DNA of 64,000 nucleotides from Heterodontus francisci (lineage: Eukaryota): assembly GCF_036365525.1 (NCBI RefSeq), contig NC_090390.1, positions 63,179,559 through 63,243,558 on the forward strand, in the 5' to 3' direction. The translations under genes were made by a program, and so were the position numbers. This document shows positions 33,781-58,638 of the stretch, one piece after another; the stretch's first letter is position 1; every line of letters starts with the position of its first letter. The notes beneath the pieces are model-generated. The model was given only the letters and a program-made list of their open reading frames with translations. It ran no database searches and was not told where the DNA came from.

Positions 33781-33944
33781 TCCACATTTTTCCTGATGCA
33801 AATCCATTCCTGAGAAAGGAAGGTTCAAACTCAGGGTTTGTTTTGCTAACTTATGTTGATGTTAGGGATTGTAAGAGAGACACCAGAGCAGATGGGTACA
33901 GCTGCATCAACACTCAAGAAGCTTGGCATTTATTGCAAGGGGGA

Positions 33945-34540
33945 GGGAGTATAAAACTATACATGGAATTGGTAAGACCACAACTAAAGTATAGTGTGCA
34001 GTTTTGGTCTCCTTACTTAAGGAGGGATAAACTTGCATTGGAAACAGGTTCACTAAGATGATTCCTGGGATGAAATGGTTGTCTTATGAGAAAAGGCTGA
34101 GCAGGTTGGGCCTATACTCATTGGAGTTTAGAAGAATGAGAGTGACTTTATTGAAACATATAAGATTCCGAGGGGGCTTCACAGGATAGATGCTGAGAGG
34201 ATGTTCCCCCTCATGGGGAGCCTAGAACTAGGGGGCACAGTTTCAAAAAAGGGGTCTTCCTTTTAAAACAGAGATGAGGAGGAATTTCTTCTCTCAGAGG
34301 GTCATTAATCTTTGGAATTCTCTTGCCAGAGAGCAGTGGAGGCTGGTCATTGAATAATTCAAGGCTGAGTTAGACAGATTTTTGATCTAAAAGGAAGTCA
34401 AGGGTTATGGGGGGGGTGGGGGGCAGGCAGGAAAGTGGAGTTAAGGCCACAATCAGATCAGCCATGAACGTATTGAATGGCAGTGCAGGCTAGAGGGGCC
34501 AAATGGTCTACTCCTGCTCCTATTTCTTATGTTCTTAGGT
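33945..34540 (+). mobile_element. CR1 3' fragment
   Basis: LVRPQLKYSVQFWSP; tail TTCTTATGTTCTTA. Confidence 0.8.
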
Positions 34541-34571
34541 TGACAGTCTCCAAGACAAAACTGTCTGCTTG

Positions 34572-35860
34572 ATTTTTTAAAATTCATTCATGGGATGTGA
34601 GCATTGCTGGCAGGGCCAGCATTTATTGCCCATCCCTAATTGTCAGTGAGAAGATGATAGTGAGCTGCCTTCTGGAATGACTGCAGTCCATATGGTGTAT
34701 GTATACCCACAGTGCTGTTAGGGAGGGAGTTCCAGGATTTTGACCCAGCAACATTAAAGCAATGGTGATATATTTCCAAGTCAGGGTAGTTTGTGGCTTG
34801 GAGGGGAACTTGCAACTGATGATGTTCCCATGCGTCTGCTGCCCTTCTTCTTCTATGTAGTAGAGGTCACGGGTTTGGAAGGTGCTGTCAAAGGACCCTT
34901 GGTGAGTTGCTGCAGTGCATCATGTAGATGGTACACAGATGGTGCCAGTGGTGAAGAGAATGAATGTGGTAGATGAGGTGTCAATCAAGTGGGCTGCTTT
35001 TTTCTGGATGGTGTCCAGTTTCCTGAGTATTGTTTGAGCTGCACTCATCCTGACTTGTGCCTTGTGATGGTAAACAAGCTTTGGGGAGTCAGGAGGTGAG
35101 TTACTTGCTGCAAATTCCCAGTGTCTGACCTGCTCTTGTAGCCACATTATTTATATGGCTGGTCCAGTAAAGTTTCTGGTCAATGATAACCCTCAGGATG
35201 TTGATGGTGGGGGATTCAGTGATGGTAATGCCGATGAACGTCAAGGAGAGATGGAAGGTTAGATTCTTTCTTGTTGGAGAAGGTCATTGCCTGGCACTTG
35301 TGTATCGCGAATGTTACTTCCCAGTTATCAGCCCAAGCCTGAATGTAGTCCAGGTTGCTGCACGCGGGCACAGACTGTTTCACTATCTGAGGAGTTGCAA
35401 CTGGTACTGAACACTATCCAATCTTCAGTGAACATCCCCACTTCTGACCATATGATGGAGAGAAGGTCATTGATGTAACAGCTGAAAATTGGCAACTCAT
35501 CCACTTGCCTAAACATTTACTCACTCCACCACCAGTATATCGTGGCTGCAGTATGTACTATCGACAAGACGCACTGCAGCAACTCACCAAGGCTTCTTCA
35601 GCAGCACCTCCCAACCCTTTAACCTCCGTCGCCTAGAAAAACAAGATCTGTATGGAAACACCATCACCTCTAAATATCCCTCCAAGTCACACACCATCCT
35701 CACTTGGATATGTATCATTGTCCCAACAACATTGTTAGGTCATTATCCTATTTAACAGCATTGTGTGAGTATCTACACCAAGACACTTAGGAAGAAGGCC
35801 AATCACCACCTTTTCAGGGTAATAAATACCAGCCTTGGCATCGTGCTGAGAATGATTTTT
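34572..35860. mobile_element. Two decayed 3' fragments of the tRNA-headed LINE family in opposite orientation
   Basis: 34572-35485 (-) and about 35490-35860 (+) both match 43575-44520. Confidence 0.75.
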
Positions 35861-35944
35861 TTAAAAATTGAAATGAGAAACAGTTGAACCCGTGTCTATC
35901 CCAGCTAATGTCTTTAACTGCATTGCTCAGTTATGTTCATTGTC

Positions 35945-36390
35945 AGCTCCAGCTCACTTGGCAGTATCTCACCTCGGAGTAAGAAAGTTGTGGATTCAAG
36001 TCCAGGGAGTCGAGCACAAACATTTAGGCTGACATTCTAGTGCAATAGTGAGGGAGTGCTGCGATGTTGGAGGTGTTGCCTTTTGGATGAGATGTTAAAC
36101 CAAAGCCTCATCTCCTCTCTCATATGGATGTAAAAGATCCCATGGCACTATTTCGTAGAACAGCAAGGCAGTTACCCCTGGTATCCTGTCAATATTTCTC
36201 CCTCAATCAACATCACTAAAGATGCAGATTATCTGTCCATTATTACTTGCTGTTTGTAGGGGTTTGCTGTGCATATACTGGCTGCTGTGTTTCCCACTTT
36301 ACAACAGTGACTACAATTCAAAAGTACTTCATTGGCTGTAAAGTGCTTTTGGATATCCTGAGTTCATGAAAGGTGTTATGTAAATGCAAG
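35945..36390 (+). mobile_element. Deu-SINE (SacSINE1-like)
   Basis: B-box-like GGATTCAAGTCC; Deu domain GGATGAGATGTTAAACC...AAAGATCCCATGGCAC. Confidence 0.8.
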
Positions 36391-36392
36391 TA

Positions 36393-38103
36393 CCATAATC
36401 TTTGGGGGTATAATACATATTTATTCCTTAAAAATTGATCTAGAAGTTAGGATGCATGTTATACATGGTAACAACTGAAAACAGGTTTTTTGTAGCTTGT
36501 ATTAAAAACCTAATTTTTGAAAGAAATTATCAAGAGGCTATTCGTATGTCTTGAGATTTTTTACATTTATTTACATATATAGAAGCCTTGAAATGTTTCT
36601 GAACCGCTGCCCTCAAATACTTTACACAGCTCCTTTACTGCCTCATCATCTCTCTCATTGTCACCATAAATGGCATCACCACAGACATCATCTTTATCTT
36701 CGTTATCCCAGAGGATGTTGTGCTGGACAATCATGGCGTTTGTGAGGCAACACTTCTGAAAGCCGCACTGGATCAGGGATGGATCATTGGCATCCTAAGC
36801 TTCTTTGATCTATTGAGCAATGAGCCAAAGGTCTGGTTTCTTCTGGTTGCCTGATGGTGTAAACACATGTGCTCCAGAGTGGAGCCACATTGGTGCACCT
36901 GTTGTTTAAATGGTCAGCTGCAGCTATGTCCATCACTTGCTACTAGCCTGTCATATCCCTGGGAATAATGACAAGATCCGTAAGATTATCATCTGGGATA
37001 TCCTTGATGTGTGAAATTTGCTGACACCTAAAAGCATCCAAGACCAGCAAATGACATTCCCGAGTGGGGCCTTTGCACCACACGCTACACAACCAGTCTT
37101 TGATCAAACCTTATTCATCCAATCTTTTTCACCTTCACGAATGATCACGCCTTGTGGCCATGTGATATTCTTTGGAAGGATTTTTAGTTTTAAGATAATA
37201 TATGACTGCATCTTTGTTCCATCCCATACATCCCAAGCATGAAAGTGAAATGGTTTTTTTGTTACCAGTTGATCTTAAGATGATCGATTTTTTTCCTTTG
37301 ATAGCCATGGTTTAACTGCACGAAATGTCAAAAGGAGGGGTGTCAGATCTTCCTTGGCAATATGGGATGCACTATAGTGGTGTTGCTTTGACAGCCTTAT
37401 GATATAAAGCTGGTACTCACATAACCCATCTTCAAAACCATCAGGCATGCCTTACACCATTGAGTGCATCAATATATGAATACGTCATGTCTTTGCATGA
37501 AGAGGTAGCACCATCTTGGAGATGCTTTAAAGGTGCTTTTGGGGTCCAAAACTTTCATGATATAAAGGGCTTTCAAACAAATTTCTACACTGCTGACTGT
37601 GCATCCACTTGCTTGAAGTTATTGCTTGAGCTGTAGGTGCTGAGTCTTTCTTCCACATCGAGCGGCCATGGCTTGCTTACCGTGGGACTTTAGCTTGCTC
37701 TTTCAGTTTTGCCAAAGTCTAATCTTTGCTTCATAACATGAAATTCCCATGCTGCTGCTCTATTACCATGCTTTTCAGCAACTTCTATCACCTTAAGTTT
37801 GAAGGCTGCCATGTGACTTGCTCTTTTCTCTGCCATATTAACAGTTAGTACAAAGAATCCCGCCTCATGTGTGTCACATGCTACGTTTGATCGATCGATA
37901 AACATGTGGGACTGGCCACTCAGCAGAATAGGCTGGATACAGACCCTTTAGCTTAGCCAGATTGGCTCACTACTTTTGTCAATAAAGGGTCACTTTGAAT
38001 GTAGCATTGTAAAAGTCTAGGTGCATATTATACCTAGTGATAAGGCAAATTTGTCTTTTCATTCACAAAAGTCTAGCTGTGTATTATATTGAGAAAATTA
38101 TGT
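36393..38103 (-). mobile_element. Degenerate pogo-like (Tc1/mariner superfamily) DNA transposon
   Basis: Brinker-like DNA-binding domain AAFKLKVIEVAEKHGNRAAAWEF; DDE_1 remnants; ends TA|CCATAATCTT ... AAAATTATGT. Confidence 0.7.
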
Positions 38104-39793
38104 TTTTTTCTTTATCTTTCTTGCATTGAAGTTCCATCCCGCTTTCAACAAATATTAAGCCAAACATTTTGAGGTCTTCATGCGCGGCAATGGCAACAAA
38201 AGATGGATTTTGCTAAGTAATCCTCATCAGTGAGCATCCAAAGACACCTATGAACATTTCTCTCACTTTGGTCAGTTGAAGCTTTTTGCTCACTCAGGTA
38301 AAAGCCTAGCCTGGATATCTAATCCAGTGTTCCACTCAAATTTCACTTGGGTACAATTTTTATAATGAAATCTGTCTGTCCAATGCAGACAGGGGTTGCA
38401 AGACTGCAATTTTCTCAAAACTTCCTGTTGCTTGCAAGCTTGTATTTTTGCCCAGTTAACAGGCCAGTTTAATGAGCAAGTATATTACCTGCCTCACATA
38501 TTCAAAGTTCCCCCTATAGCAGAGGCATTGGCTCATTTGATTTTACAGTAGAAACATAATAATCACCTTGACCTAATTAGCATCTACACAGAGTGGGCTC
38601 ATCTCATGTTAGCCATCTGGGTTATGGGGGATTTGGGCTTTTTTTTGCCTCAATCAGAAGCGTCTGAGAGGTGGTATGTATAACATAGTAAATAGTAAGC
38701 AAAAGGTACATGTGACAGTTTGCAAGAGTAGGTCAAGGAGAACAGATTCAAACCAGTAAAAGGCAAATTCAGGACTGATAACAGGATATTTTTCACATAA
38801 TGAATAATAATAAATGCAACGAATTCCCAGGTAATGTAGTACAGCCAAAACCCTGAAATCATTTAAGAACCAATTGGATACTGCAGTGGATGGATGAACT
38901 GTAAGACTGGCCTTCTTCAACTGTAAATACCTTGTGATGCTACCAGCTACAGTGGTGTTAAAGAAAGTTGCATTTGGAAGCTTCACATCCATACTTCCTG
39001 TACAGAACAAGCATGGGCATGATGTGACTTAGTTAAATTAAGAATGAATAAACCATATCTTGAAATTCTTCTTGAGATCAAGTCTAACTTGTGTCTATAT
39101 GGGGCCGTTGTGGGAGATTAATTTAGATAATTAATTATGTTTTTAAAGTTCTGTTCTCCACCATCTGCAAGTTCCGCTCACATCATGCACCACGCTGACT
39201 TGGAAATATATTGCCGTTCCTTCTCTGTCGCTGGGCCAAAGCCCTGGAACTCCCTCTCTAACAGCACTGTGGGACTACCTTTAACACATGGATTGCAGCG
39301 GTTCAAGACAGTGACTGAGCACCAGGGATGGGTGAAGCAACTCAAGTTCTGTATGGAAGGAATCTGATCTCTATTGCACTTTCTGAAATGTCAAATTTGA
39401 ACTGTTTTGTAATGTATTTTTTATGAATAAAATATATTCATGGGCAATGCCCAGATCCCATGAACGAAAGCCCGCCCCCCCCCCAAAAAAAGCCTTCATT
39501 TGCTAGGACGACCGTCAACTAATTATTTCAAAATTAATTACCAGTTAAGAATTTAAATAGGAGAAAACTAGCCATTGGCGAAAATTTATGTTGTCATTAT
39601 TTGTCGACCTGGTTTTACCCAATAGTATCGATCACAGCTGTGTGTGTGTGTGTGTATATATATCTATTTAGAAAGCTGCTCTGTAAACGGATATAGAGGC
39701 GGTGCTAGAGTTTAGTTGAGTGCATAGACTGTGCGTGTGGGGGTTATTCCGTGTTATACTTTGTGTGCAACTGGTCTCTCGTGATAAAGCAAC

Positions 39794-39845
39794 ATGGCGT
39801 GGAAGGTCGGTGTCGCTGCAATTGTATTGTGTCTCATCATAATTG
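39794..39845 (+). CDS. TGN38/TGOLN2-KCT2 family gene, exon 1 (signal peptide)
   Basis: Kozak gcaacATGG; MAWKVGVAAIVLCLIII(G); donor G|gtaagt, phase 1, matching the acceptor at 47167. Confidence 0.85.
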
Positions 39846-41138
39846 GTAAGTTTTTAAATGTAAAAGTCGTGTTAAGATTGCTGGGGTTTGAAAGCGACAA
39901 ACTATCACCTTTGTATTTGCGGGGGAATTAAATTCTTAATGACAGCAGGTACATAGATGCAATGTCCTGTGGGAGTAGTTATCCAACAGCCCAGGTTAGA
40001 CTGTTCAAGCGGTAAGTGGGTGATACTCGGGTGTTGGGAATCTTCACTCCGGTATTGGATTGTAAAGACTTTGTAGAAATGCCCAAAGGAGGAAGTTCTG
40101 ATTCCACTGTAACCAAAATGAGGTCATTTATCCTTCAGTGAGAAGTGGAAGGGCCGTAATTTAAATATTGAGTGGGAAGGGGGTTATATTCGCTTGAAGT
40201 TGTCATTTCTTAAATATCCAGTGTTATTTGGAGCTAATTTAATGTGATCTGACCTCTCTTGGGCACGTGGTTGAATGGAGAGGTTAGGAACCAGTTTCAC
40301 AATATCCAACGCCTAAAATTTTGGTTTCATTTCACTTTCCTTTCACTGCTTCCTGTTTTATTTTGGAAGAGAAGGCTTTGTTTTTGTTCATGATGTGGGT
40401 CTTAAATTTCCGGCATATTTGCACCAGAGATGCGCGCAAGTAATGTACAGCCTGAAAAAGTGGGGAATGGGGGGGGGGGATTGTGGTCACAACTGAATTA
40501 TGTGCGAGTGCAATACGTGCTCTTCTCAATCCTTTGGTCAGTAATCGCTCCACCCATAATAATGGTCCCGCCCCTAAACTCCGAAGCTTCATGAGTTTCC
40601 TGCTTACGCCAGTTCGGGGGTTCTGTTGAGAGTTGAGACCAGGTTTTCAGGTGTAAACAAATTTCATTGCAATTTTTAAACGTCTCATTTATTCTCACTT
40701 GAGACATGTATTGCTTTCTGTATAAACCACATTAAAAATTGAAAAGCTTCCCCGATTACAAGTTCTTGCACCTGCTGTTAATGGTTAAATGAGTTCAAAC
40801 TTTCAATATAATATGGTGAGTTTGGTGCTTTGGTTCCTTATTTGTACTGTTTTGCACCCATTTTACATTTGGGAGTATTCTAATGAGATTCACCAGAAAA
40901 TTAGTGGCATTTTCAAGTCTAACTGCTGGATTTTGCCCAATGAGGAAAATCCAGACTATCAACATTCAACATTGTACTTTAGTTTGTCCAGTACTTGTCA
41001 ACAAAAGGGTACCCATTCGAAATACAAGTAGACCTTGTATGATAGAAACAATGTACCCAAGTAAAATTGGTCATAACATTAATATGCAATCTCATTTCAG
41101 CTGATTTCAATTTAATTCCTGACTTGTGCAGTGCAGAT

Positions 41139-41508
41139 CTTTTGTTTGTGGGATGTGAGCATTGCTGGCTAGGCCAGCATTTATTGCCCATCCCTAATTG
41201 TCCTTGAACTGTGGCTCGCTAGGCCATTTCAGAGGGCAGTTAACAGTCAACCACATTGTTGGTCTGGAGTCACATGTAGGCCAGACCACATAAGGATGAC
41301 CGATTTCCTTCCCTAAAGGACATTAGTGAACCAGATGGGTTTTTACAACAATCAACAATGGTTTCATGGTCACCGTTAGACTAGCTTTTTTATTCTAGGT
41401 TTATTAATTGAATTCAAACTTCATATACCATGGCGGGATTCAAACACTTGTCCCCAGAGCTTTAGCCTGGGCTCTGGATTACTCGTCCAGTGACATTACA
41501 CCACTGCA
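41139..41508 (-). mobile_element. SINE made of the 5' ~300 nt and 3' ~70 nt of the tRNA-headed LINE
   Basis: Head and body match 20998-21309; tail matches 22300-22375. Confidence 0.88.
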
Positions 41509-43495
41509 AGTGTACTACAGCCCTCCAAACAGTCAGGGAGAGATAGAGGAGCAGATATGTAGGCAAATCTCAGATGTAAAAGTAATAGGGTGGTAATAGG
41601 GGATTTCAACTTCCCCAATACTAACTGGGATAGTCTTTGTGCAAAAGGCTTTAAGGGGGCGGAATTCGTAAAATGCATACAGGAGAGCTTTTTGAACCAG
41701 CATGTAGAAAATCCTACCAGAGAAAGGGAAGTACTGGACCTAATCCCAGGGAATGAAGCCGGACAAGTTGTAGAAGTGTTGGTGGGGGAGCTTTTGGGGA
41801 TTGTGACCATAACTAAGATTTAAGGTAATGATGGAAAAGAACAAAGATGGACAGGAAATAAAAGTACTGAATTGGAGGAAGGCTGATTTCAATATGATAA
41901 AACAGGCCAAAAGGGACTGGGAGCAGCTACTTGTAGGAAAGTCTACATCAGACCAGTGGGAGTCATTCAAAAAAGAAATAGAGTTCAGGGCCAACATGTT
42001 TGCGTAAAGGTGAAGGGTAGGACCAGCACTCCAGGGAATTCGATGTCAAGGGATATAGAGGATTGGATAAGGGAAAAAAGGCTTATGGCAGATTGAGTGC
42101 TGAAAACAGCAGAGGCCCTAGAGGAGTATAGAAAGTGTAGGGGAGTATTTAAAAAAAAAAGTACTTAGAGCTAAGAGGGGCCATGAAAAAACACTGGCAG
42201 ACAAGATAAAGAAAAATCCCAAGGCATTTTATAAGTATATTAAGGGCAAGAGGATAACCAGGGAAAGAGCAGGGCCTATTAAGGACCAAAGTGGCAATCT
42301 GTGTGGAGCTGGAGGACAGGTGAGATTTCAAATGATTACTTTACATCTGTGTTCACTTTGGAGAAGGATGATGTAGAGATCAGGAAGGGGGATTGTGATA
42401 TACTTGAACAAATTAGCATTGAAGTGGAGGTAGGGGGGGAAAGAAGTATTAGCTATTTTAGTGGGCTTAAAAATGGATAAATCCCCAGGCCTAGATGAGC
42501 TGTATCCCAGGCTGTTGAGGCAAGGGAGGAGATAAGGGCTTTGACATGAATTTTCAAATCCTCTCTGGTCACAGGAAAGGCACCAGAGGACTGGAGGACA
42601 GTGAATGTTGTACCATTAATCAAGAAGGGTAGCAGGGAGAAACCAGGTAATTACAGGCCAGTGAGTCTGACATCAGCGGTAGGATAAGCAGAGCTGTGGC
42701 AAATGGAATTTAATCCTAGGAAGTGTGAGGTGATGCATTTTGGGAGGACTAACAAGGCAAGGGAATATGAAATGGATGGTAGGACCCTAGGAAGTACAGG
42801 GGGTCAGAGGGACCTTGGTGCCCTTGTCCATAAATCACTGAAGGCAGCAGCACAGGTAGATAAGGTGGTTAGAAGCATATGGGATACTTGCCTTTATTAG
42901 CCGAGACAGAATATGAGCAGGGAGGTTATGATGGAGCTGTATAAAATGCCAGTTAGGCAACAGCTGGAGTACTGTGTACAGTTCTGGTCACCACACTATA
43001 GGAAGGATGTGATTGCACTGGAGAGGGTGCAGAGGAGATTCACTGCCTGAGCTGGAGCATTTCAGCTATGGAGAGAGACTGGATAGGCTAGGGTTGTTTC
43101 TCTTTGAGCAGAGAAGGCTGAGGGGGGGGGACCTGATTGAGGGATACAAAGTTGAGGGGCATTGATAGGATAGATAGGAAGGAACTCTTTCCCTTAGTGG
43201 ATGGGTCAATAACCAAGGTGCATAGTTTTAAGATGAGGGATAGGAGGTTTAGAGGGGATTTGAGGAAATTTTTCAACTAGAGGGTGGTTAGAATCTGGAA
43301 CACACTGCCTGAAGTGGTAATAGACGCAGGAACCCTCACAACATTGAAATATTCAGATGAGGGCTTGAAACGCTATAGCGCAAAGGCTACAGGCCAAGTG
43401 CTGGAAAATGGGATTGGAATAGTTTAAGTGCTTGATGTCCGGCACAGACATGATAGGCCAAAGGGCCTGCTTCTGTGCTGTATAACTGACTCACT
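41509..43495 (+). mobile_element. CR1 LINE (same family as 11860-14825) with the RT core deleted
   Basis: Colinear with the 11860 copy but jumps from YRPVSLTS to WQMEFN near 42685. Confidence 0.9.
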
Positions 43496-43571
43496 CTACT
43501 TTCTATGGAGGAATTCTATGCCTTCTCTAGCTGGAGTATTTATATTGCAAGTTTGCTTTGGCAGTAAAGGA

Positions 43572-46265
43572 GTTTTTTTTATTCATTCACGGGATGTGGA
43601 CGTCACTGGCCAGGCCAGCATTTGTTGCCCATCCCTAATTGCCCTTGAGAAGGTGGTGGTGAGCTGCCTTCTTGAACCGCTGCAGTCCATGTGGGGTAGG
43701 TACACCCACAGTGCTGTTAGGAAGGGAGTTCCAGGATTTTGACCCAGTGACAGTGAAGGAACGCGATATAGTTCCAAGTCAGGATGGTGTGTGACTTGGA
43801 GGGGGACTTGCAGGTGGTGGTGTTCCCATGTATTTGCTGCCCTTGTCCTTCTAGTTGGTAGAAGTCGCGGGTTTGGAAGGTGCTGTCGAAGGAGCCTTGG
43901 TGCATTGCTGCAGTGCATCTTGTAGATGGTACACACTGCTGCCACTGTGCGTCGGTGGTGGAGGGAGTGAATGTTTGTAGATGGGATGCCAATCAAGCGG
44001 GCTGCTTTGTCCTGGATGGTGTCGAGCTTCTTGAGTGTTGTTGGAGCTGCACCTATCCAGGCAAGTGGAGAGTATTCCATCACACTCCTGACTTATGCCT
44101 TGTAGATTGTGGACAGGCTTTGGGGAGTCAGGAGGTGAGTTACTCACCTCAGGATTCCTAGCCTCTGACCTGCTCTTGTAGCCACGGTATTTATATGGCT
44201 ACTCCAGTTCAGTTTTCGGTCAATGGTAGCCCCTAGGATGTTGATAGTGGGGGATTCAGCGATGGTAATGCCGTTGAATGTCAAGGGGAGATGGTTAGAT
44301 TCTCTCTTGTTGGAGATGGTCATTGCCTGGCACTTGTGTGGTGCGAATGTTACTTGCCACTTATCAGCCCAAGCCTGGATATTGTCCAGGTCTTGCTGCA
44401 TTTCTACACGGACTGCTTCAGTATCTGAGGAGTCACGAATGGTGCTGAACATTGTGCAATCATCAGCGAACATCCCCACTTCTGACCTTATGATTGAAGG
44501 AAGGTCTTTTATGAAGCAGCTGAAGATGGTTGCGCCTAGGACTCTACCCTGAGGTACTCCTGCAGTGATGTCCTGGAGCTCAGATGATTGACCTACCACA
44601 ACCATCTTCCTTTGCGCTAGGTATGACTCCAGCCAGTGGAGGGTTTTCCTCCTGATTCTCATTAACCTCAGTTTTGCTAGGGCTCCTTGATGTCATACTC
44701 GGTCAAATGCTGCCTTGATGTCAAAGGCAGTCACTCTCACCTCACCTCTTGAGTTCAGTTCTTTTGTCCATGTTTGACCAAGGCTGTAACGAGGTCAGGA
44801 GCTGAGTGGCCCTGGTGGAACCCAAACTGAGCATCACTGAGCAGGTTGTTGCTAAGCAAATGTCGCTTGATGGCACTGTTGATGACACCTTCCATCACTT
44901 TACTGATGATTGAGAGTAGGCTAATGGGGCGGTAGTTCGCCGGGTTGGATTTGTCCTGCTTTTTGTGTACAGGACATACCTGGGCAATTTTCCACATTGC
45001 AGGGTAGATGCCAGTGTTGTAGCTGTACTGGAACAGCTTGGCTAGGGGCGCGGCAAGTTCTGGAGCACAGGTCTTCAGTACTATTGCTGGAATGTTGTCA
45101 GGCCCCATAGCTTTTGCAGTATCCAGTGCCTTCAGTCGTTTCTTGATATCACGTGGAGTGAATCGAATTGGCTGAAGTTTGGTATCTGTGATGCTGGGGA
45201 CTTCAGGAGGAGGCCGAGATGGATCATCAACTCGGCACTTCTGGCTGAAGATTGTTGCAAATGCTTCAGCCTTATCTTTCGCACTGATGTGCTGGGCTCC
45301 CCCATCATTGAGGATGGGGATATTTGTGGAGCCACCTCCTCCAGTTAGTTGTTTAATTGTCCACCGCCATTCACGGCTGGATGTGGCAAGACTGCAGAGC
45401 TTAGATTTGATCCGTTGGTTATGGGATCGCTTAGCTCTGTGTCACATGCTGCTTACGCAGTTTGGCGTGCAAGTAGTCCTGGGTTGTAGCTTCACCAGGT
45501 TGCCACCTCATTTTGAGGTATGCCTGGTGCTGCTCCTGGCATGCCCTCCTCCACTCTTCATTCAACCAGCGTTGGTCTCCTGGCTTGATGGTAATGGTAA
45601 AGTGGGGGATATGCCGGGCCATGAGGTTACAGATTGTGGTTGAGTACAATTCTGATGATGGCCCACAGTGCCTCATGGATGCCCAGTTTTGCATTGCTAG
45701 ATCCATTCGAAATCTATCCCATTCAGCACGGTGATAGTGCCACACAACACGATGGACGGTATCCTCAATGTGAAGGCAGGACTTTGTCTCCACAAGGTCA
45801 CTCCTACCAATACTGTCATGGACAGATGCATCTGCGGCAGACAGATTGGTGAGGACAAGGTAGAGTATGTTGTTCCCTCGTGTTGGTTCCCCCACCACCT
45901 GCCGCAGACCCAGTCTAGCAGCCATGTCCTTTAGGACTCGGCCAGCTTGGTCAGTAGTGGTGCTACCGAGCCACTCATGGTGATGGACATTGAAGTCCCC
46001 CACCCAGAGTACATTTTGTGCCCTTGCAGTGCTTCCTCCAAGTGCTGTTCAACATGGAGGAGTACTGAGTCATCAGCTGAGGTAATCAGTAGGAGGTTAC
46101 CTTGCCCATATTTGATCTGATGCCATGAGACTTCATGAGGTCCGGAGTCGATGTTGAGGACTCCCAGGGCAACTCTCTCCCTACTGTATACCCCTGTGCC
46201 ACCACCTCTGCTGGGTCTGTCCTGTCGGTGGGACAGGACGTACCCGGGGATGGTGATGGCGGTGT
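43572..46265 (-). mobile_element. Long 5'-truncated copy of the tRNA-headed LINE (CR1 superfamily ORF2, endonuclease plus RT)
   Basis: GDFNVHH, GPDNIP, NYRPISLLS, QFGF, GVPQG, MFADD, MEYSPLAW; poly(A) tail; few frameshifts. Confidence 0.93.
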
Positions 46266-47166
46266 AGTTATTCAGTGTTTACACACACTTCCTGTGAACA
46301 ATGAAAAAACTGGTGTGTAAAAGCAAAAAGGCAAGTCTGAGAATCTTTCAGATATTTTTAACTTTTTATGCGCCTATAATTTTTATTCTTGCTTCCCTGA
46401 TGTGCAAATCTACTGAGTTCATAAGCTTGAGGCCAGTCTTGCATTTTGTAACATGGGCAAGTTTCTTTTTTAAAACAAAAAAAAATCTATTTCATGTTGG
46501 TTTCAGAAAATCACACTTCTGATCTCTCAATTTGCCCAAGAGCAACTAGCGACAGCAATTAGATTCTTTAATTTGACATTGGTAGACATGGCTTTCCTTT
46601 TTTAAAGACTATATTCTTAGCCTGCCATGAACAATATCATGATACATACCTAGTATCAAGATAACACTATGTGAGGAGGAGAAAATGAAGCAGTGAGATG
46701 TGTATTATTTATGTTGAATACATAGACTCTTGATCTGCTTAATTTAGCCAAACTGCCAGATTTTACATAACTAAAATAAGGGATCCAGGAGGAGAAAACT
46801 TTTCCTGTAACTTAATCCAGTGGCATAATTCAGAGGAGGATTTTTGGATTCCTGGCGAGCATTTATTCAAAAATCACCAAAGTTAGTCATTTACCTCATT
46901 ACTGTTTGTAGGAGTTTCCTGCACATATGTTAGCAGCTGTCTGATTACATTGCAATTATTACATTTTGCTGGGAATTTTTTGGGGCGCCTGAAAATGTGA
47001 AAGGCAGTGCCTTATTGTGAAAAACAGTAACCCACTTTTTGCTCTTAGACTTGACTTGCAATATTAGTAAACTCACTGAATTGAATAATGGGATCTTTCA
47101 TATCTATGAATTGCATTAATCTAATTAACTAAACAGATTAACACAGATTACTCTTTGCTGTTGCAG

Positions 47167-49097
47167 GTGCTGACACGGACAAGGCCCCCGAGGGGGAGGG
47201 AGCCGCCAGGGACAAGGCCCCCGAGGGGGAGGGAGCCGCCAGGGATAAGGCCCCCGAGGGGGAGGGAGCCGCCAGGGATAAGGCCCCCGAGGGGGAGGGA
47301 GCCGCCAGGGATAAGGCCCCCGAGGGGGAGGGAGCCGCCAGGGATAAGGCCCCCGAGGGGGAGGGAGCCGCCAGGGATAAGGCCCCCGAGGGGGAGGGAG
47401 CCGCCAGGGATAAGGCCCCCGAGGGGGAGGGAGCCGCCAGGGATAAGGCCCCCGAGGGGGAGGGAGCCGCCAGGGATAAGGCCCCCGAGGGGGAGGGAGC
47501 CGCCAGGGATAAGGCCCCCGAGGGGGAGGGAGCCGCCAGGGATAAGGCCCCCGAGGGGGAGGGAGCCGCCAGGGATAAGGCCCCCGAGGGGGAGGGAGCC
47601 GCCAGGGCTAAGGCCCCCGAGGGGGAGGGAGCCGCCAGGGCTAAGGCCCCCGAGGGGGAGGGAGCCGCCAGGGCTAAGGCCCCCGAGGGGGAGGGAGCCG
47701 CCAGGGCTAAGGCCCCCGAGGGGGAGGGAGCCGCCAGGGCTAAGGCCCCCGAGGGGGAGGGAGCCGCCAGGGCTAAGGCCCCCGAGGGGGAGGGAGCCGC
47801 CAGGGCTAAGGCCCCCGAGGGGGAGGGAGCCGCCAGGGCTAAGGCCCCCGAGGGGGAGGGAGCCGCCAGGGCTAAGGCCCCCGAGGGGGAGGGAGCCGCC
47901 AGGGCTAAGGCCCCCGAGGGGGAGGGAGCCGCCAGGGCTAAGGCCCCCGAGGGGGAGGGAGCCGCCAGGGCTAAGGCCCCCGAGGGGGAGGGAGCCGCCA
48001 GGGCTAAGGCCCCCGAGGGGGAGGGAGCCGCCAGGGCTAAGGCCCCCGAGGGGGAGGGAGCCGCCAGGGCTAAGGCCCCCGAGGGGGAGGGAGCCGCCAG
48101 GGCTAAGGCCCCCGAGGGGGAGGGAGCCGCCAGGGCTAAGGCCCCCGAGGGGGAGGGAGCCGCCAGGGCTAAGGCCCCCGAGGGGGAGGGAGCCGCCAGG
48201 GCTAAGGCCCCCGAGGGGGAGGGAGCCGCCAGGGCTAAGGCCCCCGAGGGGGAGGGAGCCGCCAGGGCTAAGGCCCCCGAGGGGGAGGGAGCCGCCAGGG
48301 CTAAGGCCCCCGAGGGGGAGGGAGCCGCCAGGGCTAAGGCCCCCGAGGGGGAGGGAGCCGCCAGGGCTAAGGCCCCCGAGGGGGAGGGAGCCGCCAGGGC
48401 TAAGGCCCCCGAGGGGGAGGGAGCCGCCAGGGCTAAGGCCCCCGAGGGGGAGGGAGCCGCCAGGGCTAAGGCCCCCGAGGGGGAGGGAGCCGCCAGGGCT
48501 AAGGCCCCCGAGGGGGAGGGAGCCGCCAGGGCTAAGGCCCCCGAGGGGGAGGGAGCCGCCAGGGCTAAGGCCCCCGAGGGGGAGGGAGCCGCCAGGGCTA
48601 AGGCCCCCGAGGGGGAGGGAGCCGCCAGGGCTAAGGCCCCCGAGGGGGAGGGAGCCGCCAGGGCTAAGGCCCCCGAGGGGGAGGGAGCCGCCAGGGCTAA
48701 GGCCCCCGAGGGGGAGGGAGCCGCCAGGGCTAAGGCCCCCGAGGGGGAGGGAGCCGCCAGGGCTAAGGCCCCCGAGGGGGAGGGAGCCGCCAGGGCTAAG
48801 GCCCCCGAGGGGGAGGGAGCCGCCAGGGCTAAGGCCCCCGAGGGGGAGGGAGCCGCCAGGGCTAAGGCCCCCGAGGGGGAGGGAGCCGCCAGGGCTAAGG
48901 CCCCCGAGGGGGAGGGAGCCGCCAGGGCTAAGGCCCCCGAGGGGGAGGGTGCCGACACGGAAAAGGCCCCCAAGGGGGAAGGTGCCGCCACGGATAATGC
49001 TGTCGAGGGAGAGGGTGCAGGCAATTTCATAATTTATCTTATAAGTGGATCACTGTTTGTCGCCGTCGTATATATCCTATACCACAACAAAAATAAG
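47167..49097 (+). CDS. TGN38/TGOLN2-KCT2 family gene, exon 2 (repeat lumenal domain and TM helix)
   Basis: ctctttgctgttgcag| phase 1; (G)ADTD-(KAPEGEGAARD/A)53-...EGEGAGNFIIYLISGSLFVAVVYILYHNKNK|gtaagc; TM plus HNKxK matches family motif VAVLYIAHHNKRK. Confidence 0.9.
47181..48995 (+). repeat. 33-bp coding minisatellite, 53 near-identical units plus 2 degenerate units
   Basis: Unit AAGGCCCCCGAGGGGGAGGGAGCCGCCAGG(GAC/GAT/GCT); unit 1 ends GAC, units 2-12 GAT, units 13-53 GCT. Confidence 0.97.
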
Positions 49098-50381
49098 GTA
49101 AGCTGCTGAGTTTTGTGATTCGTGTACCAAGTGCAATAAATTTAGTTTAAGGTGTAAAGGGTTAGAGCCAGTATACTATCCAAGTTTGTCTTGATTCTCA
49201 TGCAAATGTGCTTTTGAGTGAGGAAGAATAATTGTGCATCTGTTAAAATAGAATATTTGGAAGAGACACTGCAATGTTGGAAGTGTGAAGTATAAAAAAT
49301 GACATGCAACTTAATGTGTAGTCACTTTCCTAAGTCAAAAGCCTGGTTGGGAGAAGTGACCTTGAACTCTAGAGGGAGGGGTCAAACTTTGAGGTCAATT
49401 TTATGTGAAAATTGTGTATAGTTTAAATAGTGCTTGCAATTCACCTGGTGAAATGCTACTCATGTAAAATAAAACTGGAAGATAAATTTAATTCCATCAG
49501 TTCTAATTTAACATTGTAGGCCTTACTTTAATAGTATTGCAGATGTACTTTCTCTGGCTGTATACTGGTAGAACTGGCAGGATTTTTGGCAGCAATGGTC
49601 ATCCTGCTAGTTCATTCCTCCATCCCCTGCCCAACTCCATGAGGATAGAAGGCCCAATATGAGATTTTCTTATCCTGTTGGAATTTTGGAACATGGCTAG
49701 AAGTGGATTCTGCCTCATTGTTCCTTCCCTTCCACCCCACCCACTTTGCACCACTTCTGTGCCCAAAATGGATGCAATTCACTGGATTAAATATTCTTGC
49801 AAACCTAATTAACTCAAAGTAACATCAGATTCCTAATCCTAGGTGAACATGAGATTAGCATGCATGGAAATTGCATTGGTACAGATCACGTAGAAAAATG
49901 TGATATGAAATGAGGTTTACAATATTGCTATTTGTAACTGAACTTGTTTTATTATTTGGTAGTGAATGTGGCAGATTATTTGTCAATTGATCATTATCTT
50001 TTCTATTATGATGCAACTTTACTTGCATCAAGTATTTAAGCTGACTTTGGAGTGGGCTAAGGGGTGAAGTGGAATTTTAACTTAACGGGCCTATCAAGAA
50101 ACAGACTGTCAAGTGCAACACTGGTTTTACGCCGTCTGATTTTATAGTCCATTTTTGGAGTCATTGGAGAGTAATGCTGGCAGAGTATTAACTGGTGTTC
50201 CACCTGGCAAGAAGTTAAAATTACCCCCTTGGTTATTAGAAAATGAGTCATAGACTCAGCTGATGATCTAAGATTAAATCTTTAAGTTGTATTATGTCAT
50301 GGTAGGCAGGATACTTCAATGATGGCCAGAGACTCTGTTTTAAGATGAGCTATCTATATACTATGTACCTGATTATTCCAG

Positions 50382-50507
50382 ATCACTGCCTTGTGTCAGA
50401 AAAATGGGCCCAGAAGAGCTAGACGTCCAAAGGTATCTGAATATCAGCGGCTTGATCAGAATTTAAGTGAAGTCATCACCAGTCTGAAAAAGAAAAATCT
50501 TGATTGA
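50382..50507 (+). CDS. TGN38/TGOLN2-KCT2 family gene, exon 3 (cytoplasmic tail)
   Basis: ttccag|ITALCQKNGPRRARRPKVSEYQRLDQNLSEVITSLKKKNLD*; RRPKxSxYQRLDQ as in TGN38/46. Confidence 0.92.
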   Translation: MTALCQKNGPRRARRPKVSEYQRLDQNLSEVITSLKKKNLD

Positions 50508-52210
50508 GACAAGTTTTGAGGTATGTTCTTGAAATGTTTGTCTTCTTATAAAGTATCTTTGACTTTTTACCTAATGGATGACACCTAATGTGCTCAATGG
50601 ATGTATCAGTTTATAGTTGGCTTTATTCAATACCTTCATTTGGGGACCTTGGACCTAGTTTATTCTGCATTTTGTGTAATGAACCATTCATAAAAGCTTA
50701 CTGCTACTTGTCTGGAGTTGTTTATAATGCTGTAGTGCTTTTTTTTTTGCCCTGAGATTCATGCTCCGACCTGGAAGCAAAGGAAAGCCCTGGCAAAAAA
50801 GCAAAGAGATTTGCTCCATTTTGATGTCTTCTGAAATCCTATTCATGGTTTTTCATTGTAATTGCTCATTCAAGATCAGAGGTTAAGTTAGCACTGAGGT
50901 GCCCTTTAAATAGTGTGATAAAACTGCAATAGCTGCTTTGGTAGTTATAGGTGACTCTTGCTGAGCTTAAGTAAACTCTACCACTTTAATGTCCTTGTAT
51001 CATTAGCTATCAGCATGAACTGGCAGATGTACCCCTTACCAGCTTTTGGTTCCTGAATCTCATCTGTCCCTTCTAACTGGGATTTGTGAAGGGAAGAGAA
51101 TTGTCTCCCTGGCTGGAACACATTCAAACATATCAAGTTGCTTGAGAAAAGCAAGCACTATTTTTACACACGACTGCCTCCACTTGCATCCCTCTTAACA
51201 CATCTTTTTAAGAGGTGGGATGAGATCACTTCTACTGGCTGACATGAGTAATATTGATGTAATCCATACTCTAGGGGTGAGAGTATTTATCAGCTTTTGC
51301 ACTGTTTGTCCCAAGGTGAGTAGGCCAGAATTCTGAGTCAGGTGGCTGGTCGGCTTCTAGATTAAAATACAATTCTCCTGGTGGGCAGTTAACAAATGTC
51401 AATTGTGTAATAGAATGAAGTAGAATTAATCTAATTGCATTAATGTGTTCTCTCTCTAAAAGGTTTACAACATTGTGTAAAACATTCCACCAAATTAAAG
51501 CTCTGAAGCCACAAATCCTTGAAAAACTGGAAATGGAGGAAAAATGTTGACGCAGTTTTAAAAAAAAACCCAACATAGGAAGAAGGTCCTCTTTGAAGAT
51601 TTCAGTCCACTTGCAGCTTTGCTTACCAGTAAACCCAATGGAAGAAACTCATGTTAACACTGTCCACGTGTAATAACAAAGTGCCTTTTTATCCTATGGT
51701 TTAAAACTTGATTTATTTTAACTCAGCATCTCTTTGTACAAAGCTGCCCCTCAAACATATTGTAAAACTTTGGTTGAATTGTAACTTGTAGGCAGAGTTG
51801 GTCTATTTTGTACATGCATTTATAAAATTGTGATTCTTTAAGATAATTCTGTTCTACTTGCAGACAGTTTTTTCAGATAATTAAATAAGCTTGATATATA
51901 TCCAAACTACAATAGTTTTCTATGATCAGATCTAGGTATAGATTGGATCCAAGGCCATAGTATCATTTGGCAATTTGTACAAATGCAATTTTGAATATTT
52001 ACTATTTTTTTTAGCTCTCCAGAATTTTCATGTGCCTTACTTGCCCATGCCCATTACTTGTATTGCAAGTATTGAAATTGTATCAAAATAGTCTCAACTG
52101 TTTTCATATTTAATAGGTTGCTGCTTATAAGTAAATACATGTTCTATTTTTGTGTATATTCACTTTTTATGGAGCCATTGTACACTGATTTTTACAATGC
52201 TTGAGTGAAA
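50508..52210 (+). other. Probable 3' UTR of the TGOLN2/KCT2-like gene
   Basis: AT-rich stretch with no recognised repeats after the stop codon; only variant poly(A) signals seen (ATTAAA, AGTAAA), so the end is uncertain. Confidence 0.4.
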
Positions 52211-52394
52211 TAGATTACTACATCCAGGTCTCTTCATCTGGTTGTGTACTTGTGCTGGGATGAGTGCAGGGCTTGCTTAATTCATGTTCTTAGTTTTGAT
52301 CTGTTAGCCCTGGGTGAAAGAAGGAAATAGTCCTACTTAGTAAAAGGAAAGCAAAATACAGAAAATCTTGAAACAAAAAAATGCTGGAAATGCT

Positions 52395-54310
52395 TGGTGT
52401 TCCTCAAGGGTCAGTGCTAGGATCGTTCCTTTTTTAAAAAATATATAAATGATATTTGGAATACAGTAGAATTTCTAAATTTGCTGCCAATTATAACAAA
52501 CTTGGAGTGGCAGTGAGGATGATGCCAACTATCTGCAACAGGTCATCAGCTAGCAGAATGGGTAGACAAGTGGCAGATGGAATTTAATACATGTGCAAGG
52601 TGATGCAGTTTGTCAGAAGGGAGAGATAGGGCGAGGCTATATAGACTTAATGACAGTTTTGAAGAATGTAGGAACAAGAGGGCCTGGGCGTTCGTGTGCA
52701 TTGATTTTTGAAGGTGTGGGACATATTGAGTAGTTAAAGCATATAGGATCTTGGGCTTCATAAATGGAGGCATTGAGTACAATGCCTGGTCAGACCCCAA
52801 CTGGAGTATTGTCCCGTTCTGGTCACTACACTCCTTTAGAAAAGATGTGAGGTTCCTTAAGAGGGTATAGAAGATTTACCAGAATAGTTCCAGGGATGGG
52901 GGATTTTAGTTACAAGGTTAGGTTGGAAAAGCTGGGATTGCACTGAGTAAAGGTTTTGGGCAAGAGAAGCAGGGGCAATGTGAGGAAAAACTTTTTTACA
53001 CAGCAACTGATAATGACCTAGAACACTTTGCTCACAAGGGTGATGGAAATGGAGAATCAATGATTTCATAAGGAAATTGGCACTTGGAGAAAAAAAAAAC
53101 TTGGAGGGCCATGGACTGAGCAGAGCAATGGGACTGGCTAGATTGAGTAATCAGCTGACTGGCCTCCTCCTGTGCCATAAATGACTAGTGCAACCTGACC
53201 TGAAGATTTAGTTAATCATTTAAATGAGGGCAGCACAAAATCTGCATGCCACCTGCCTCAATAGGCGCCAACATTGTGAATCACGACTCCCTGCGCTCAA
53301 GTGGACTTTAATGAATCTTAAGCCAAACTTTTCCCAATAGTTGAAAGGTTAATAACCAGAGGCCACAGATTCAAGGTGATTGAAACCAGAAGCAACATGA
53401 AAAACCTTTTTATGCAATAAGTAGTTAGGATTTGGAATGCACTGCCTCATGGGTTGGGGAATACAGATTCTATAGAAGCCTTTAAAGGGGAAATTGGAAA
53501 AATACTTAAGAATTGTAGGGATCTAGGAATGAGCTGAGGTGCAAGACTCACTGGATTGCTCTTTGAAAGGGTCAACAGAGACCAGATGGGGCAAATGACT
53601 ACCTCCTTTGCTGTGCTACTCTGATTCTATGATTTGAGTTGAGAGAAACAGAATAAACATTTCACGTCAGTAACCTTTCATCAGATCTACTTTACTTACC
53701 AGTTGTTAGGATCATTAGCAGTAGCTAGATTGCAGTGCTGGAAGAGTGGAGAAGTAAGCCTCCACTCCGTCCCAGACTGTGCTATCTTAAATCAAACAGA
53801 TGCTTTCCCCAGCAGCCCCCACAGCCTCAATTCTTTATAAAGACAGATACATGTGAACATACAAATTAGGAGCAGAAGGAGCCATTCGGCCCCTCTAGCC
53901 TACTCCACTATTCAATAAGGTCATGGTTGATCTGTGTCTCAAATCCCACACTCCCATCTGCCCCTGATAACCTTTGATTTCCTTGCCTAACAAGAACCTA
54001 TCTACCCCCTGCCTTAACATTATTTAATGATCCTGTCTCCACCACCTCTGAAGCAGAATTCCAAAGTTGCACAACACTCAGAAAAAAATTCTCCTCATCT
54101 CTGTCCTAAAAGGGCGGCCCTTAAGTTTAAAACAGTTTCCCCCTAGTTCTGGATCCCCCCTGAAGAGGAAACATCCTTTCCACATCCACCTTGTCAAGAC
54201 CGTTCAGCATCTTATATACTTCAATCAAATCTCCCCTTATTCTTCTAAACTCCAGTGAAAACAAGCCCAAACTGTCCAACCTTTCCTTATAAGACAGATG
54301 TCCCAGCATC
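52395..54310. mobile_element. Cluster of old CR1 3' fragments
   Basis: GVPQGSVLG...WQMEFN at 52395-53190 (+); 3' ends at 53330-53635 (+) and 53850-54310 (-). Confidence 0.7.
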
Positions 54311-54433
54311 TATAGTGGGGCTGCATATGTTTTATGGTGATAAGAAATGCTGGGACAGCTTAACTCCGTAATTGATAGCCCATATTTTTTCTTCTCATTG
54401 GCTGTACATTGTGTATGTAATATGTATGTATAT

Positions 54434-55488
54434 TGTTACGATCAGGTGAGGTGTGGTCAAAAGCCTCCCCTCTTGCCCCTCCATGTTTGACTGCAACAGG
54501 CCATATTTCTTTTTAAAAAGTGTGTATGCTTACCAATTTAGTGATTGTTTAACCATCTTACATGCTATGATCATAAAAGAACCAATCGAGACAGGTTTTC
54601 TTGAGTTTAACAAAGAAAGGGGTTAGCTTTATTGTACTTAAACCAATCTAAGTAAAATAATAAACTACGTTCCAACTTTCTCACACGCTCCTGAGATTCA
54701 CGGACGCAAATAGGTTACAGAGTGGGGAAGAATAGATTGGTTGGATTAGAGTCCGGAGCAATAAAAACAAAGTACACAGTGTATGGAGTTTGGTAACTCA
54801 GTTGTCCTCTGGTTGAGCGCCATGGTCCTGAGGCTTCCAGCTTGTAGATGTGGCCAGCTGGTTTAGGGCTTTCTTGGAGACAGTGATGCAGAAAGTTTTC
54901 TTCAGGGGGACGGTCTACAGCAATGATAGGCTTGGATGATTACAGCCAATAGGCAGAGTTCAAACTTGCAAGGTGGTCTGGAGAGAGAGACCCCACTTGG
55001 GTCTTTACTGGTCAGTCTCCGTTTCTTGTCTACCTGCAGAGAGAGAGAGAGCAACTAGCTTAAAACACACAGATGGTGGGTCTGTTACATGGCCCAGTGT
55101 GTATTCTCTCTCTCTTGCAAATTAATTAGTTCATGTCTAAGAATTCCAATCTCTCTCTGGGTCCTACTGTTCCAGTGATTACCTTTTGAGTGGTCCATCT
55201 CCACCAGTGTTAATGTTCCAATATTGCCTTTAATGTCTTGTTAATGAGGACAGGACAGGTAGTCCATTCAAAATTCCCAGGCCATTGTTCTAGATGGGGA
55301 CTCACCAGACCTTATGTCCCCACCTCAATACATTGGAATGTCGGGTATTTTGATGCAAAGTATAGTGACTATTTTAGCTGCTAGCAGTCACCTTTTATTA
55401 GTTTTTTCCCCTTTTTTTAAAAGTTTAATTCAGGTTTCTAACCGATGGATTAAAAAATTATCATTCAGCATAGCACATGCTCATGACA
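54434..55488 (-). mobile_element. Solo LTR with 4-bp TSD
   Basis: TGTTACG...CATGACA termini, flanked by ATAT on both sides; 1055 bp. Confidence 0.85.
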
Positions 55489-57759: not shown

Positions 57760-58035
57760 TAATCCTATTTGCCGTACAATTTTGAAACGATATATAGATG
57801 TAAGTACACACTTCAGCCACAGCCATTGAAGTGCTGGGTTTATTGAAGTGAGTGCAGGGGGCGGAACTGTAACTGGTTACTCAGAGCCTTCAGTTTCAGA
57901 TCCAATCATTTCCTCAGCTCACTGCGTCGAACACAATTTGTCAATTTCAGCGACAACCGACCAACTGTGAAGAAAGGTTCTTCCTGTTGTTTCACTCTGC
58001 TGCTTCTAATCGCTTAGGCCGAAGGTACTGGTAAA
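57760..58035 (+). promoter_or_regulatory. Candidate CASP7 promoter / non-coding exon 1
   Basis: Locally CpG-retaining sequence, GC box GGGGCGG near 57857, possible donors AG|gtactg or G|gtaaaa near 58024-58031; the coding exon has an acceptor 2 nt before the ATG, so an upstream exon is needed. Confidence 0.35.
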
Positions 58036-58351
58036 ACTTTTCTCATGAATTTAATTCGATTTTGGATTTGGAGGGTAGAAAGACATCTCTTTTAGATAAG
58101 TGTGCGATCTGTCTCGCAGATTCCACATAAATACTTTGATCCAATCATTTTCAGTTTGATGTGATGTCCTTTGTTTCAAAATTATTAATACTTAAAAACT
58201 AGTTCCACGACAATATGCTCAACTGTGTAGATAAAACTAAATATTAATGGAAATACTTGTTGCCCTATTTTTAAGTACCGATGGTGACTTTTAGCTTTTT
58301 AAAATATGACCATCTTATTTGTAAGCAACTGCCCTGGACAGTGGCATATAG

Positions 58352-58638
58352 TTTTTTTCTATGTCAGAGGATGTGGGTGTCGCTGGCCCATCTCTAATTG
58401 CCCTTGAAAACTGATTGACATATTAGGCCATTTTAAAGGGCAGTTAAGAGTCAACCACATTGCTGTGGGTCTGGAGTCACGTGTAGACCAGGTAAGGACG
58501 GCAGATTTCCTTCCCTAAGGGACATTGAACCAGATGGGTTTTTATGACAATCGATAGTTTTATGACACCAATACTGAGACTAATTTACAATTCTGAATTG
58601 TTAATAATTAATTGAATTTAAATTCCACCAGCTGCCGT
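58352..58638 (-). mobile_element. Second, truncated copy of the LINE-derived SINE
   Basis: Matches 41139-41430. Confidence 0.75.

Follow-up and report, generated by a model that had tools for sequence, protein, structure and literature searches.

A four-exon TGN38/KCT2-family gene of Heterodontus francisci, a likely TCF7L2-linked paralogue kept in cartilaginous fishes

The window analysed here, a stretch of 64,000 nucleotides of Heterodontus francisci (G000:C20:63179559-63243558, host genome 6.0 Gb), holds between an NRAP-like gene and CASP7 a four-exon member of the TGN38/KCT2 family, whose coding exons at 39794-39845, 47167-49097 and 50382-50507 on the plus strand join to an open reading frame of 702 amino acids. 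With a probability of roughly 0.7 we read this gene as the TCF7L2-linked copy of the second vertebrate genome duplication, which was kept in cartilaginous fishes and likely lost in bony vertebrates, and whose product would, by prediction, shuttle among trans-Golgi network (TGN), cell surface and endosomes. That this third TGN38/KCT2 gene is an ohnologue of the genome duplication (2R), beside TGOLN2 and KCT2 (C5orf15), is likely. So far the TGN38 family has passed for a pair of vertebrate genes with little connection to each other; the third lineage has a near-ancestral tail.

The presence of a four-exon spliced gene for a single-pass type I membrane protein is practically certain. As the original prediction had it, three phase-compatible exons give a signal peptide, repeats, a transmembrane (TM) helix, HNKNK and a tail: coordinates and translation agree, the joined frame has no internal stop before the TGA at 50505-50507, and introns 1 and 2 are both bounded by GT..AG, in phase 1 and phase 0, respectively. 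Hydropathy places the two most hydrophobic windows of 19 residues at residue 1 (signal) and residue 638 (TM). Exon 2 (47167-49097, phase 1 to phase 0) encodes the luminal repeats, the predicted TM helix of residues 638-656 (49026-49082), which aligns with that of every family row, and HNKNK; its coding frame holds no ATG, GTG or TTG, and the earlier remark that the true frame lacks a start codon there was thus correct. Exon 3 (50382-50520), delimited by translation and contig joints, encodes the cytosolic tail with Cys666, a basic cluster, SEYQRL (Tyr682 encoded at 50442) and the extension DQNLSEVITSLKK, and ends in 13 nt of untranslated region (UTR). Three coding exons were therefore rightly predicted, to which a fourth exon of 3' UTR only has to be added (51463-54680, end approximate), separated by a third GT..AG intron (50521-51462) that begins 13 nt past the stop; AATAAA signals lie at 53652, 54659 and 54760. 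Nonsense-mediated decay follows a 50-nt rule, and at 13 nt this intron is too near the stop to elicit it.

Transcript data consisted of contigs from four runs of one sample in one study, presumed to be RNA. The joint 49097/50382 is spliced in contigs of all four runs (depth 2584, 1462, 1709 and 95; shorter-side overlap 28, 115, 85 and 115 letters), and the joint 50520/51463 in three of them, while the fourth shows loose ends that match it; contigs of exon 4 extend to 54618-54619 in the listed pieces of three runs and in X4. Contigs also loop on the 33-bp unit of exon 2 in all four runs, in two of them with a depth 16 and 33 times that of the unique joint, hence the array is part of the transcripts. 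A reading as non-coding minisatellite was rejected, the array being in frame with the TM helix and spliced. Exon 1 (coding part 39794-39845), with a predicted signal peptide and a phase-1 donor, is supported in that it is the sole candidate with ATG, hydrophobic run and phase-1 donor in the 20 kb of 27300-47100 (under the filter applied), coincides with a CpG peak and matches the N-termini of orthologues: P0001, P0247 and P0013 begin with MAWK or MAWR followed by a hydrophobic run, as does its product. The observed/expected CpG ratio of 0.87 in 39501-40000 is the maximum among the 500-bp windows of the 64 kb, and the CpG-rich segment 39501-39793 (plus strand) is likely to contain promoter and 5' UTR.

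The case for an origin by genome duplication begins with the paralogous loci. A search of the shark's own genome with the PF17818 profile led to three loci, on the contigs C12, C47 and C20, the last being the gene studied. C47 carries a canonical TGOLN2 TM and tail and C12 a canonical KCT2 tail exon, so that the separate TGOLN2 and C5orf15 loci expected by the original prediction do exist (on G000:C47 and G000:C12), and a translocated orthologue of either was rejected, since both genes are present elsewhere in the genome. Nor does the gene carry the marks of either orthologue: EG[RK] and a tail cut after DQK, as in TGOLN2, are absent, and the copy next to TCF7L1 is that on C47, while the KCT2-type W[RK]D..CSR tail and the order C5orf15-VDAC-TCF sit on C12, where VDAC lies between TCF and KCT2. 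In all three family genes a phase-1 intron follows the signal exon and a phase-0 intron precedes the tail exon; because of these shared introns the gene is no retrocopy, and that origin was discarded as well. Four TCF/LEF genes were located on C20, C12, C47 and C1. The best match of the C20 gene is TCF7L2 and that of the C47 gene TCF3/TCF7L1, whereas C12 as TCF7 and C1 as LEF1 were assigned by elimination, neighbours and motifs, the first exon of the C1 gene scoring 63-66 bits to LEF1 and other TCFs alike. Measured to the first exon of the respective TCF gene, the distance amounts to 1.11 Mb for the gene studied, 500 kb for KCT2 and 45 kb for TGOLN2, and the chance that a random copy falls within 1.11 Mb of either of the two free TCF loci is about 0.07%. 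Three copies thus lie beside three TCF genes, as in a duplicated segment, although with differing orientation. A fourth family copy near LEF1 (C1) was not found in own-genome searches, which are weak, as the gene itself was recovered at E 7.3 with PF17818 and at E 0.39 with the TGOLN2 exon.

Phylogenetic analysis placed the gene in a clade of its own. The first tree comprised 76 columns and 45 rows chosen from 120 plus the gene studied, the second 29 rows including Callorhinchus together with three outgroup-type rows, one of them from a millipede; the KCT2 rows came from other species, exon 2 of the C12 gene not being included. Without outgroups the third clade received support of 100/98, KCT2 of 99/95 and TGOLN2 of 96/79, and with outgroups both the third clade (100/99) and KCT2 (100/99) were recovered. 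In approximately unbiased (AU) tests without outgroups (25 rows) a union of the third clade with shark TGOLN2 (p 0.040) or with elasmobranch KCT2 (p 0.017) was rejected; its union with chondrichthyan KCT2 gave p 0.094, and was rejected when outgroups were included (p 0.028). Taken by themselves, the trees show a distinct clade and give no date for the duplication.

It is the tail characters that bear upon the date. Among 247 proteins, 31 tails combine RP, the long extension and LC, 45 the long extension and W[RK][DNE], and 166 RP, a short end and EG, in addition to three outgroup tails with EG and the long extension and two unclassed ones. TGOLN2 rows hence show EG, RP and a short tail, KCT2 rows the extension only and third-type rows RP and the extension, while the outgroup rows carry EG[RK] and the long extension in 3/3 and RP in 2/3. 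Since the short TGOLN2 tail is common to sharks and bony vertebrates, the long-tailed copy is most simply older than their split. The ancestral tail would have held EG[RK], RP, YxxL and an extension of the type DxNLxEVM, from which TGOLN2 would have lost the extension, KCT2 both EG and RP, and the gene studied EG only. The earlier description of this tail as a mosaic of TGOLN2 and KCT2 did not hold, as the outgroup rows possess both parts and the mosaic is rather the ancestral state minus EG[RK], so that a recombinant tail is unneeded; its companion claim, that an ancestral tail was retained, is borne out by the same invertebrate-type relatives. In the C47 TGOLN2 gene a donor follows directly after DQK and a candidate exon 4 encodes Met and a stop; the 3'-UTR intron located after the stop in the third gene may represent the older position of this intron.

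An origin after the split from bony vertebrates has to be weighed against this, although we regard it as improbable: TGOLN2 could have been duplicated on the chondrichthyan stem, the copy having moved beside NRAP and evolved fast, in which case bony vertebrates never possessed one. The confinement of the third type to chondrichthyans (in protein collections, among the matches listed), the long stem branch of its clade (0.99) and a position and strand relative to TCF unlike those of both paralogues would all fit such a course. On the other hand, the short tail is common to shark and bony TGOLN2 (166 rows), the donor in C47 comes right after DQK and the long extension occurs here as well as in the three outgroup rows; given the shared short tail, a stem duplicate would need an extension that was lost twice at one place or regained. 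Moreover, a copy landing by chance near a free TCF paralogue has the low expectation of about 0.07% given above, and the grouping with shark TGOLN2 was rejected in the absence of outgroups. A duplication before the split of cartilaginous and bony vertebrates is therefore favoured by the tail characters, with the AU test for a shark-TGOLN2 origin, addressed below, as the opposing result.

Several observations weigh against our interpretation of the gene as the TCF7L2-linked genome-duplication paralogue. With outgroups, support for TGOLN2 was only 39/5, the union of the third clade with shark TGOLN2 was not rejected (p 0.167), and none of three rootings was rejected or preferred; on 76 columns a duplicate of shark TGOLN2 keeps some probability. 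Placed 3' of TCF7L2, the gene shares the strand of its TCF gene, whereas TGOLN2 and KCT2 lie 5' of their TCF genes and are divergent, and because of this difference a local rearrangement must be assumed; its neighbour order was taken from this genome. The window exons alone scored 16-20 bits with PF17818 as unspliced pieces, against a cut-off of 26.2. Among the matches listed from the protein collections (120 of 422; 150 of 658), no bony-vertebrate member of the third type was found, and eight elasmobranch species with KCT2 or TGOLN2 rows show no third-type row; catsharks and lamniform sharks yielded no copy. Of the two splice joints proposed for checking, 49097/50382 was seen in every run, but 39845/47167 is missing from the 15 joints listed (of 230), a listing swamped by repeats of intron 1. 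Finally, the readings of localisation and binding discussed below depend on sequence. The part of the original prediction that assigned the gene to the TCF7L2-linked paralogue thus stands as far as the separate clade and the three loci near three TCF genes are concerned, and is likely rather than proven in view of the AU result (p 0.167) and the placement on the other side of TCF.

Retention of this kind has a precedent in the little skate genome, for which 19 ohnologues retained in chondrichthyans and lost in bony fishes were reported (PMC10115646); the distribution of the gene studied follows that pattern. In the supplementary tables covered, LER15 is given as 1-alpha, LER35 as 1-beta, LER1 as 2-alpha and LER11 as 2-beta (SI Table 3), with Tcf7l2-2 on 15C, Tcf7l1 on 35C, and C5orf15, Vdac1 and Tcf7l2-1 on 11C (PMC10115646). 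This alpha/beta pairing of LER15 and LER35 predicts the gene studied to be the alpha sister of TGOLN2. SI Table 5 of the same paper contains a skate 'Tgoln2-2' (LE23029, PF17818), the id of which falls between Cyp26c1 (LE23027) and Fgf8-2 (LE23037, 15C) and far from Tcf7l1 (LE07032); from this id block it is probably the third paralogue. Among the literature matches listed, no publication on a third TGN38/KCT2 paralogue was found, though the list of 19 skate ohnologues may bear on novelty. A whale-shark paper gave no match in 12 of its 24 supplementary files (PMC8455134), and in the part of another paper that was covered TGN38 is mentioned only in a reference (PMC9897032); passages of a third one contributed no further information (PMC2156176). 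As ohnologues retained in sharks are an already known class, the surprise is moderate.

With respect to taxonomic range, a query with the tail led to five chondrichthyan proteins among seven candidates; with the TM exon none of 14 candidates was homologous. In a profile search the first 13 of the 120 matches listed (of 422) were of the third type and belonged to 10 named elasmobranch species and two further records. A profile of third-type sequences only, run against 1.84 billion representatives, gave eight matches at 100-151 bits among the 150 listed of 658, the next one reaching 68; most of these rows lack a species name and were classed by motif. The sole new high scorer was XP_007903846.2 of Callorhinchus milii, by which the third clade spans holocephalans and elasmobranchs. 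In the 247 fetched proteins, third-type tails were confined to the 31 mentioned and one Narcine row with a shortened tail, all of them from named chondrichthyans or near-copies of skate sequences. Loss in mammals, as originally proposed, agrees with their lack of the gene, yet no member appeared in any bony vertebrate sampled, which would place the loss at the base of the bony vertebrates. Absence from protein collections is, however, not absence from genomes, since the eight elasmobranchs mentioned lack a row and the product of the gene studied was itself not listed; annotation gaps or further losses occur. Nor is the gene hidden as had been supposed, except at most in this genome, for RefSeq annotates orthologues in 11 species under misleading names (TGN38-like, KCT2-like, SPT2 homolog, FLO11-like, MAGE-like). 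These orthologues (XP_043568714.1, XP_051883815.1, XP_067858286.1, XP_007903846.2 and others) share 73-84% tail identity and one clade with the gene studied; where complete they measure 214-474 aa, in contrast to 702 aa here, and are Ser/Thr-rich with unrelated repeat units. PF17818 is carried by 13/13 orthologue rows, and the Callorhinchus orthologue scores 37.5 bits; the family hallmarks, namely a predicted signal peptide, a putatively disordered luminal domain, one predicted TM helix, HNKxK and a YxxL tail, are all present. Two probable annotation artefacts were noticed in passing: the annotation of a millipede family member (P0161) joins it to a ribosomal protein L20 domain, probably by merging of neighbouring genes, and that of turtle TGOLN2 (P0073, P0080) joins it to ELMOD3, likely in read-through models.

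The luminal domain is the part in which the shark gene departs most from its orthologues. A tandem array of a 33-bp unit coding KAPEGEGAAR[D/A] occupies 47181-49015 on the plus strand with 55.6 copies and 99% matches, arranged as a single GAC-ending unit, a block of 11 GAT-ending and one of 41 GCT-ending units, identical within each block, and three diverged ones. Luminal residues 20-635 (616 aa) include 128 acidic and 109 basic residues and three Thr, whereas Ser and N-glycosylation sequons are absent; the luminal domains of the orthologues have 123-380 residues and 21-35% Ser/Thr in 11/11 rows. A mucin-like Pfam match of the domain was dismissed as a match of composition only, the domain being devoid of Ser. 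We assign very little probability to the possibility that the length of 702 aa and the glycan-free lumen are artefacts, either because the array was over-expanded or homogenised in the assembly or because a Ser/Thr-rich exon was missed. Suspicion is raised by the two blocks in which 52 of 56 units equal one of two exact 33-mers, by the Ser/Thr-rich shorter lumens of all 11 orthologue rows, and by the fact that no contig crosses the whole array, so that its length in the transcript is unconfirmed by contigs, nor was the exon 1-2 joint observed. Yet the RNA-type contigs that loop on the unit in every run speak for an expressed array, the unique exon 2 sequence flanking it on both sides is likewise Ser-free up to the TM helix, intron 1 held neither a candidate for an in-frame cassette exon nor a match to the orthologues, and the unit lacks Ser, Thr and Asn at any copy number.

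The repeat units are unlike between species, and because of this variation luminal sequence seems to be little constrained; a role as spacer or low-specificity cargo holder is the likeliest. More daring, and with little probability in our estimate, is the notion of an ancestral-tailed TGN38 ohnologue turned glycan-free sorter, in which a Ser-free, near-neutral 11-mer polyampholyte replaces the mucin-like lumen and still sorts TGN cargo, and in which the 3'-UTR intron marks an ancestral donor that later moved upstream and cut the TGOLN2 tail. If this were true, luminal sorting of the TGN46 type would rely on general features of the chain rather than on its sequence or glycans. In any case a Ser-free luminal domain provides a natural test of what luminal glycosylation contributes to the sorting of cargo, a question stated as open in the TGN46 study (PMC10928510).

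Regarding function, conservation centres on the tail. YxxL is present in 15/15 third-clade rows checked, conservation of the basic cluster, of RP and of YxxL extends from elephant shark to rays, and Cys occurs ten residues past the TM helix in 31/32 third-type rows. Return of TGN38 to the TGN requires a Ser two places before the Tyr, and this Ser is found in the gene studied and 11 more of the 15 rows. According to a study on TGN46, YQRL serves this protein as the endocytic signal by which it returns to the TGN, and the luminal domain is disordered, heavily glycosylated and carries the cargo-sorting function (PMC10928510). Exon 1 is predicted to supply a cleaved signal peptide and one predicted TM helix the anchor; the repeat domain, nearly neutral by composition, would extend into the lumen as a long and putatively disordered chain, likely serving as spacer or low-specificity cargo holder, as its sequence turns over freely between species. 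The conserved YQRL would bind adaptor medium chains and thus bring about endocytosis and TGN return as in TGN46, and the clade-specific juxtamembrane Cys666 may be palmitoylated. Judging from this conservation, the protein probably cycles through the TGN.

Loss of TGN residency in a gene of the same origin is unlikely, if by no means far-fetched: the product would then be a tissue-restricted protein, likely of the epithelial surface or secretory granules, with the lumen as a hydrated spacer and YxxL serving turnover only. The depth of spliced contigs varies about 15- to 27-fold among runs of one sample, a poor measure, the EG[RK] motif of TGOLN2 is missing and the orthologue lumens are mucin-like with their 21-35% Ser/Thr. 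In SI Table 5, anterior and posterior pectoral fin differ by log2 4.64 in skate 'Tgoln2-2', a change that has the same sign in Tp63, Kdf1 and Krtcap3-2 and the reverse sign in Pax9 and Alx4 (PMC10115646), but the identity of the skate gene was taken from the id block alone. The tail signals conserved from elephant shark to rays and the Ser before Tyr speak against such a loss, and cycling through the TGN is retained as the preferred interpretation.

The flanks fit the genes NRAP and CASP7 named beforehand. On the minus strand, head to head with the gene studied, the first two coding exons of the NRAP-like neighbour lie at 26952-27220, with a LIM exon at 26952-27047 (PF00412) and nebulin repeats further along that strand; judging from the LIM and nebulin repeats and from position, the name NRAP fits. 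Downstream, CASP7 (plus strand, 57960-63760) has a non-coding exon ending at 58024 and a first coding exon at 63641-63760, the joint of which was seen in one of four runs; a downstream exon scores 82-86 bits to caspase-7 chains versus 74-77 to caspase-3, the later exons, which match caspase-7, lying outside the window. CASP7 starts about 3.3 kb past the 3' end of the gene studied. Intron 1 contains a broken LINE-type (long interspersed nuclear element) retroelement at 43586-46048 on the minus strand, with endonuclease (PF14529) and reverse transcriptase (PF00078) matches in three of four frames tested, and further LINE-type fragments at 13475-14170 and 21657-22310, both on the plus strand, lie inside NRAP introns; over such fragments the contigs of the RNA-type runs reach a very great depth. 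In the bin with exon 1 the depth was 72, 2.9, 3.7 and 23, low in two runs.

At the other loci, the TGOLN2 gene on C47 (G000:C47:19389305-19392800) is compact, introns 1 and 3 being largely C/T-rich simple repeats, and shows a short tandem repeat in the 5' region, while its luminal exon contains repeats of the GEGKT type. The remaining two VDAC genes are situated at C42:15.85 Mb and C47:2.54 Mb with no TCF adjacent, and C20 yielded none; like LER34 in skate, C42 may represent this ancestral segment's second chromosome. The first exon of the C12 TCF gene is nearly identical to that of C20 TCF7L2, and its counterpart is named Tcf7l2-1 in the skate tables covered (PMC10115646); from its sequence, shark TCF7 seems to have diverged less than the name would imply.

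The third lineage illustrates a division of signals, in which EG and RP stayed with TGOLN2, where the extension was lost, and the extension stayed with KCT2; the third lineage's tail offers ready swaps for probing the role of the uncharacterised KCT2 extension, and for annotation the clade unites a set of misnamed chondrichthyan proteins. Comparison of the tail with PDB structures returned chance matches only, and ESM Atlas feature matches were all below 0.9. Like TGOLN2, the gene possesses a signal exon, one large luminal exon ending in HNKxK, a tail exon containing RRPK..YQRL, an intron close to the tail end, a fourth exon, luminal repeats and a TCF neighbour. TGOLN2 differs by EG[RK], a stop one residue past DQK and a third intron at that place, where the gene studied has LC[QRH] for EG, a 16-residue extension and its third intron 13 nt past the stop; the lumen of TGN46 is heavily glycosylated in the account covered (PMC10928510), as opposed to a lumen without Ser or sequon here. 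With KCT2/C5orf15 (PF17818) the gene has topology, HNKxK and YQRL in common, as well as the long DQN..SLK extension. KCT2, however, has W[RK][DNE]..CSR where the gene studied has RP, and chondrichthyan KCT2 carries 12-14 juxtamembrane acidic residues per 30, compared with 2-8 in the third clade.

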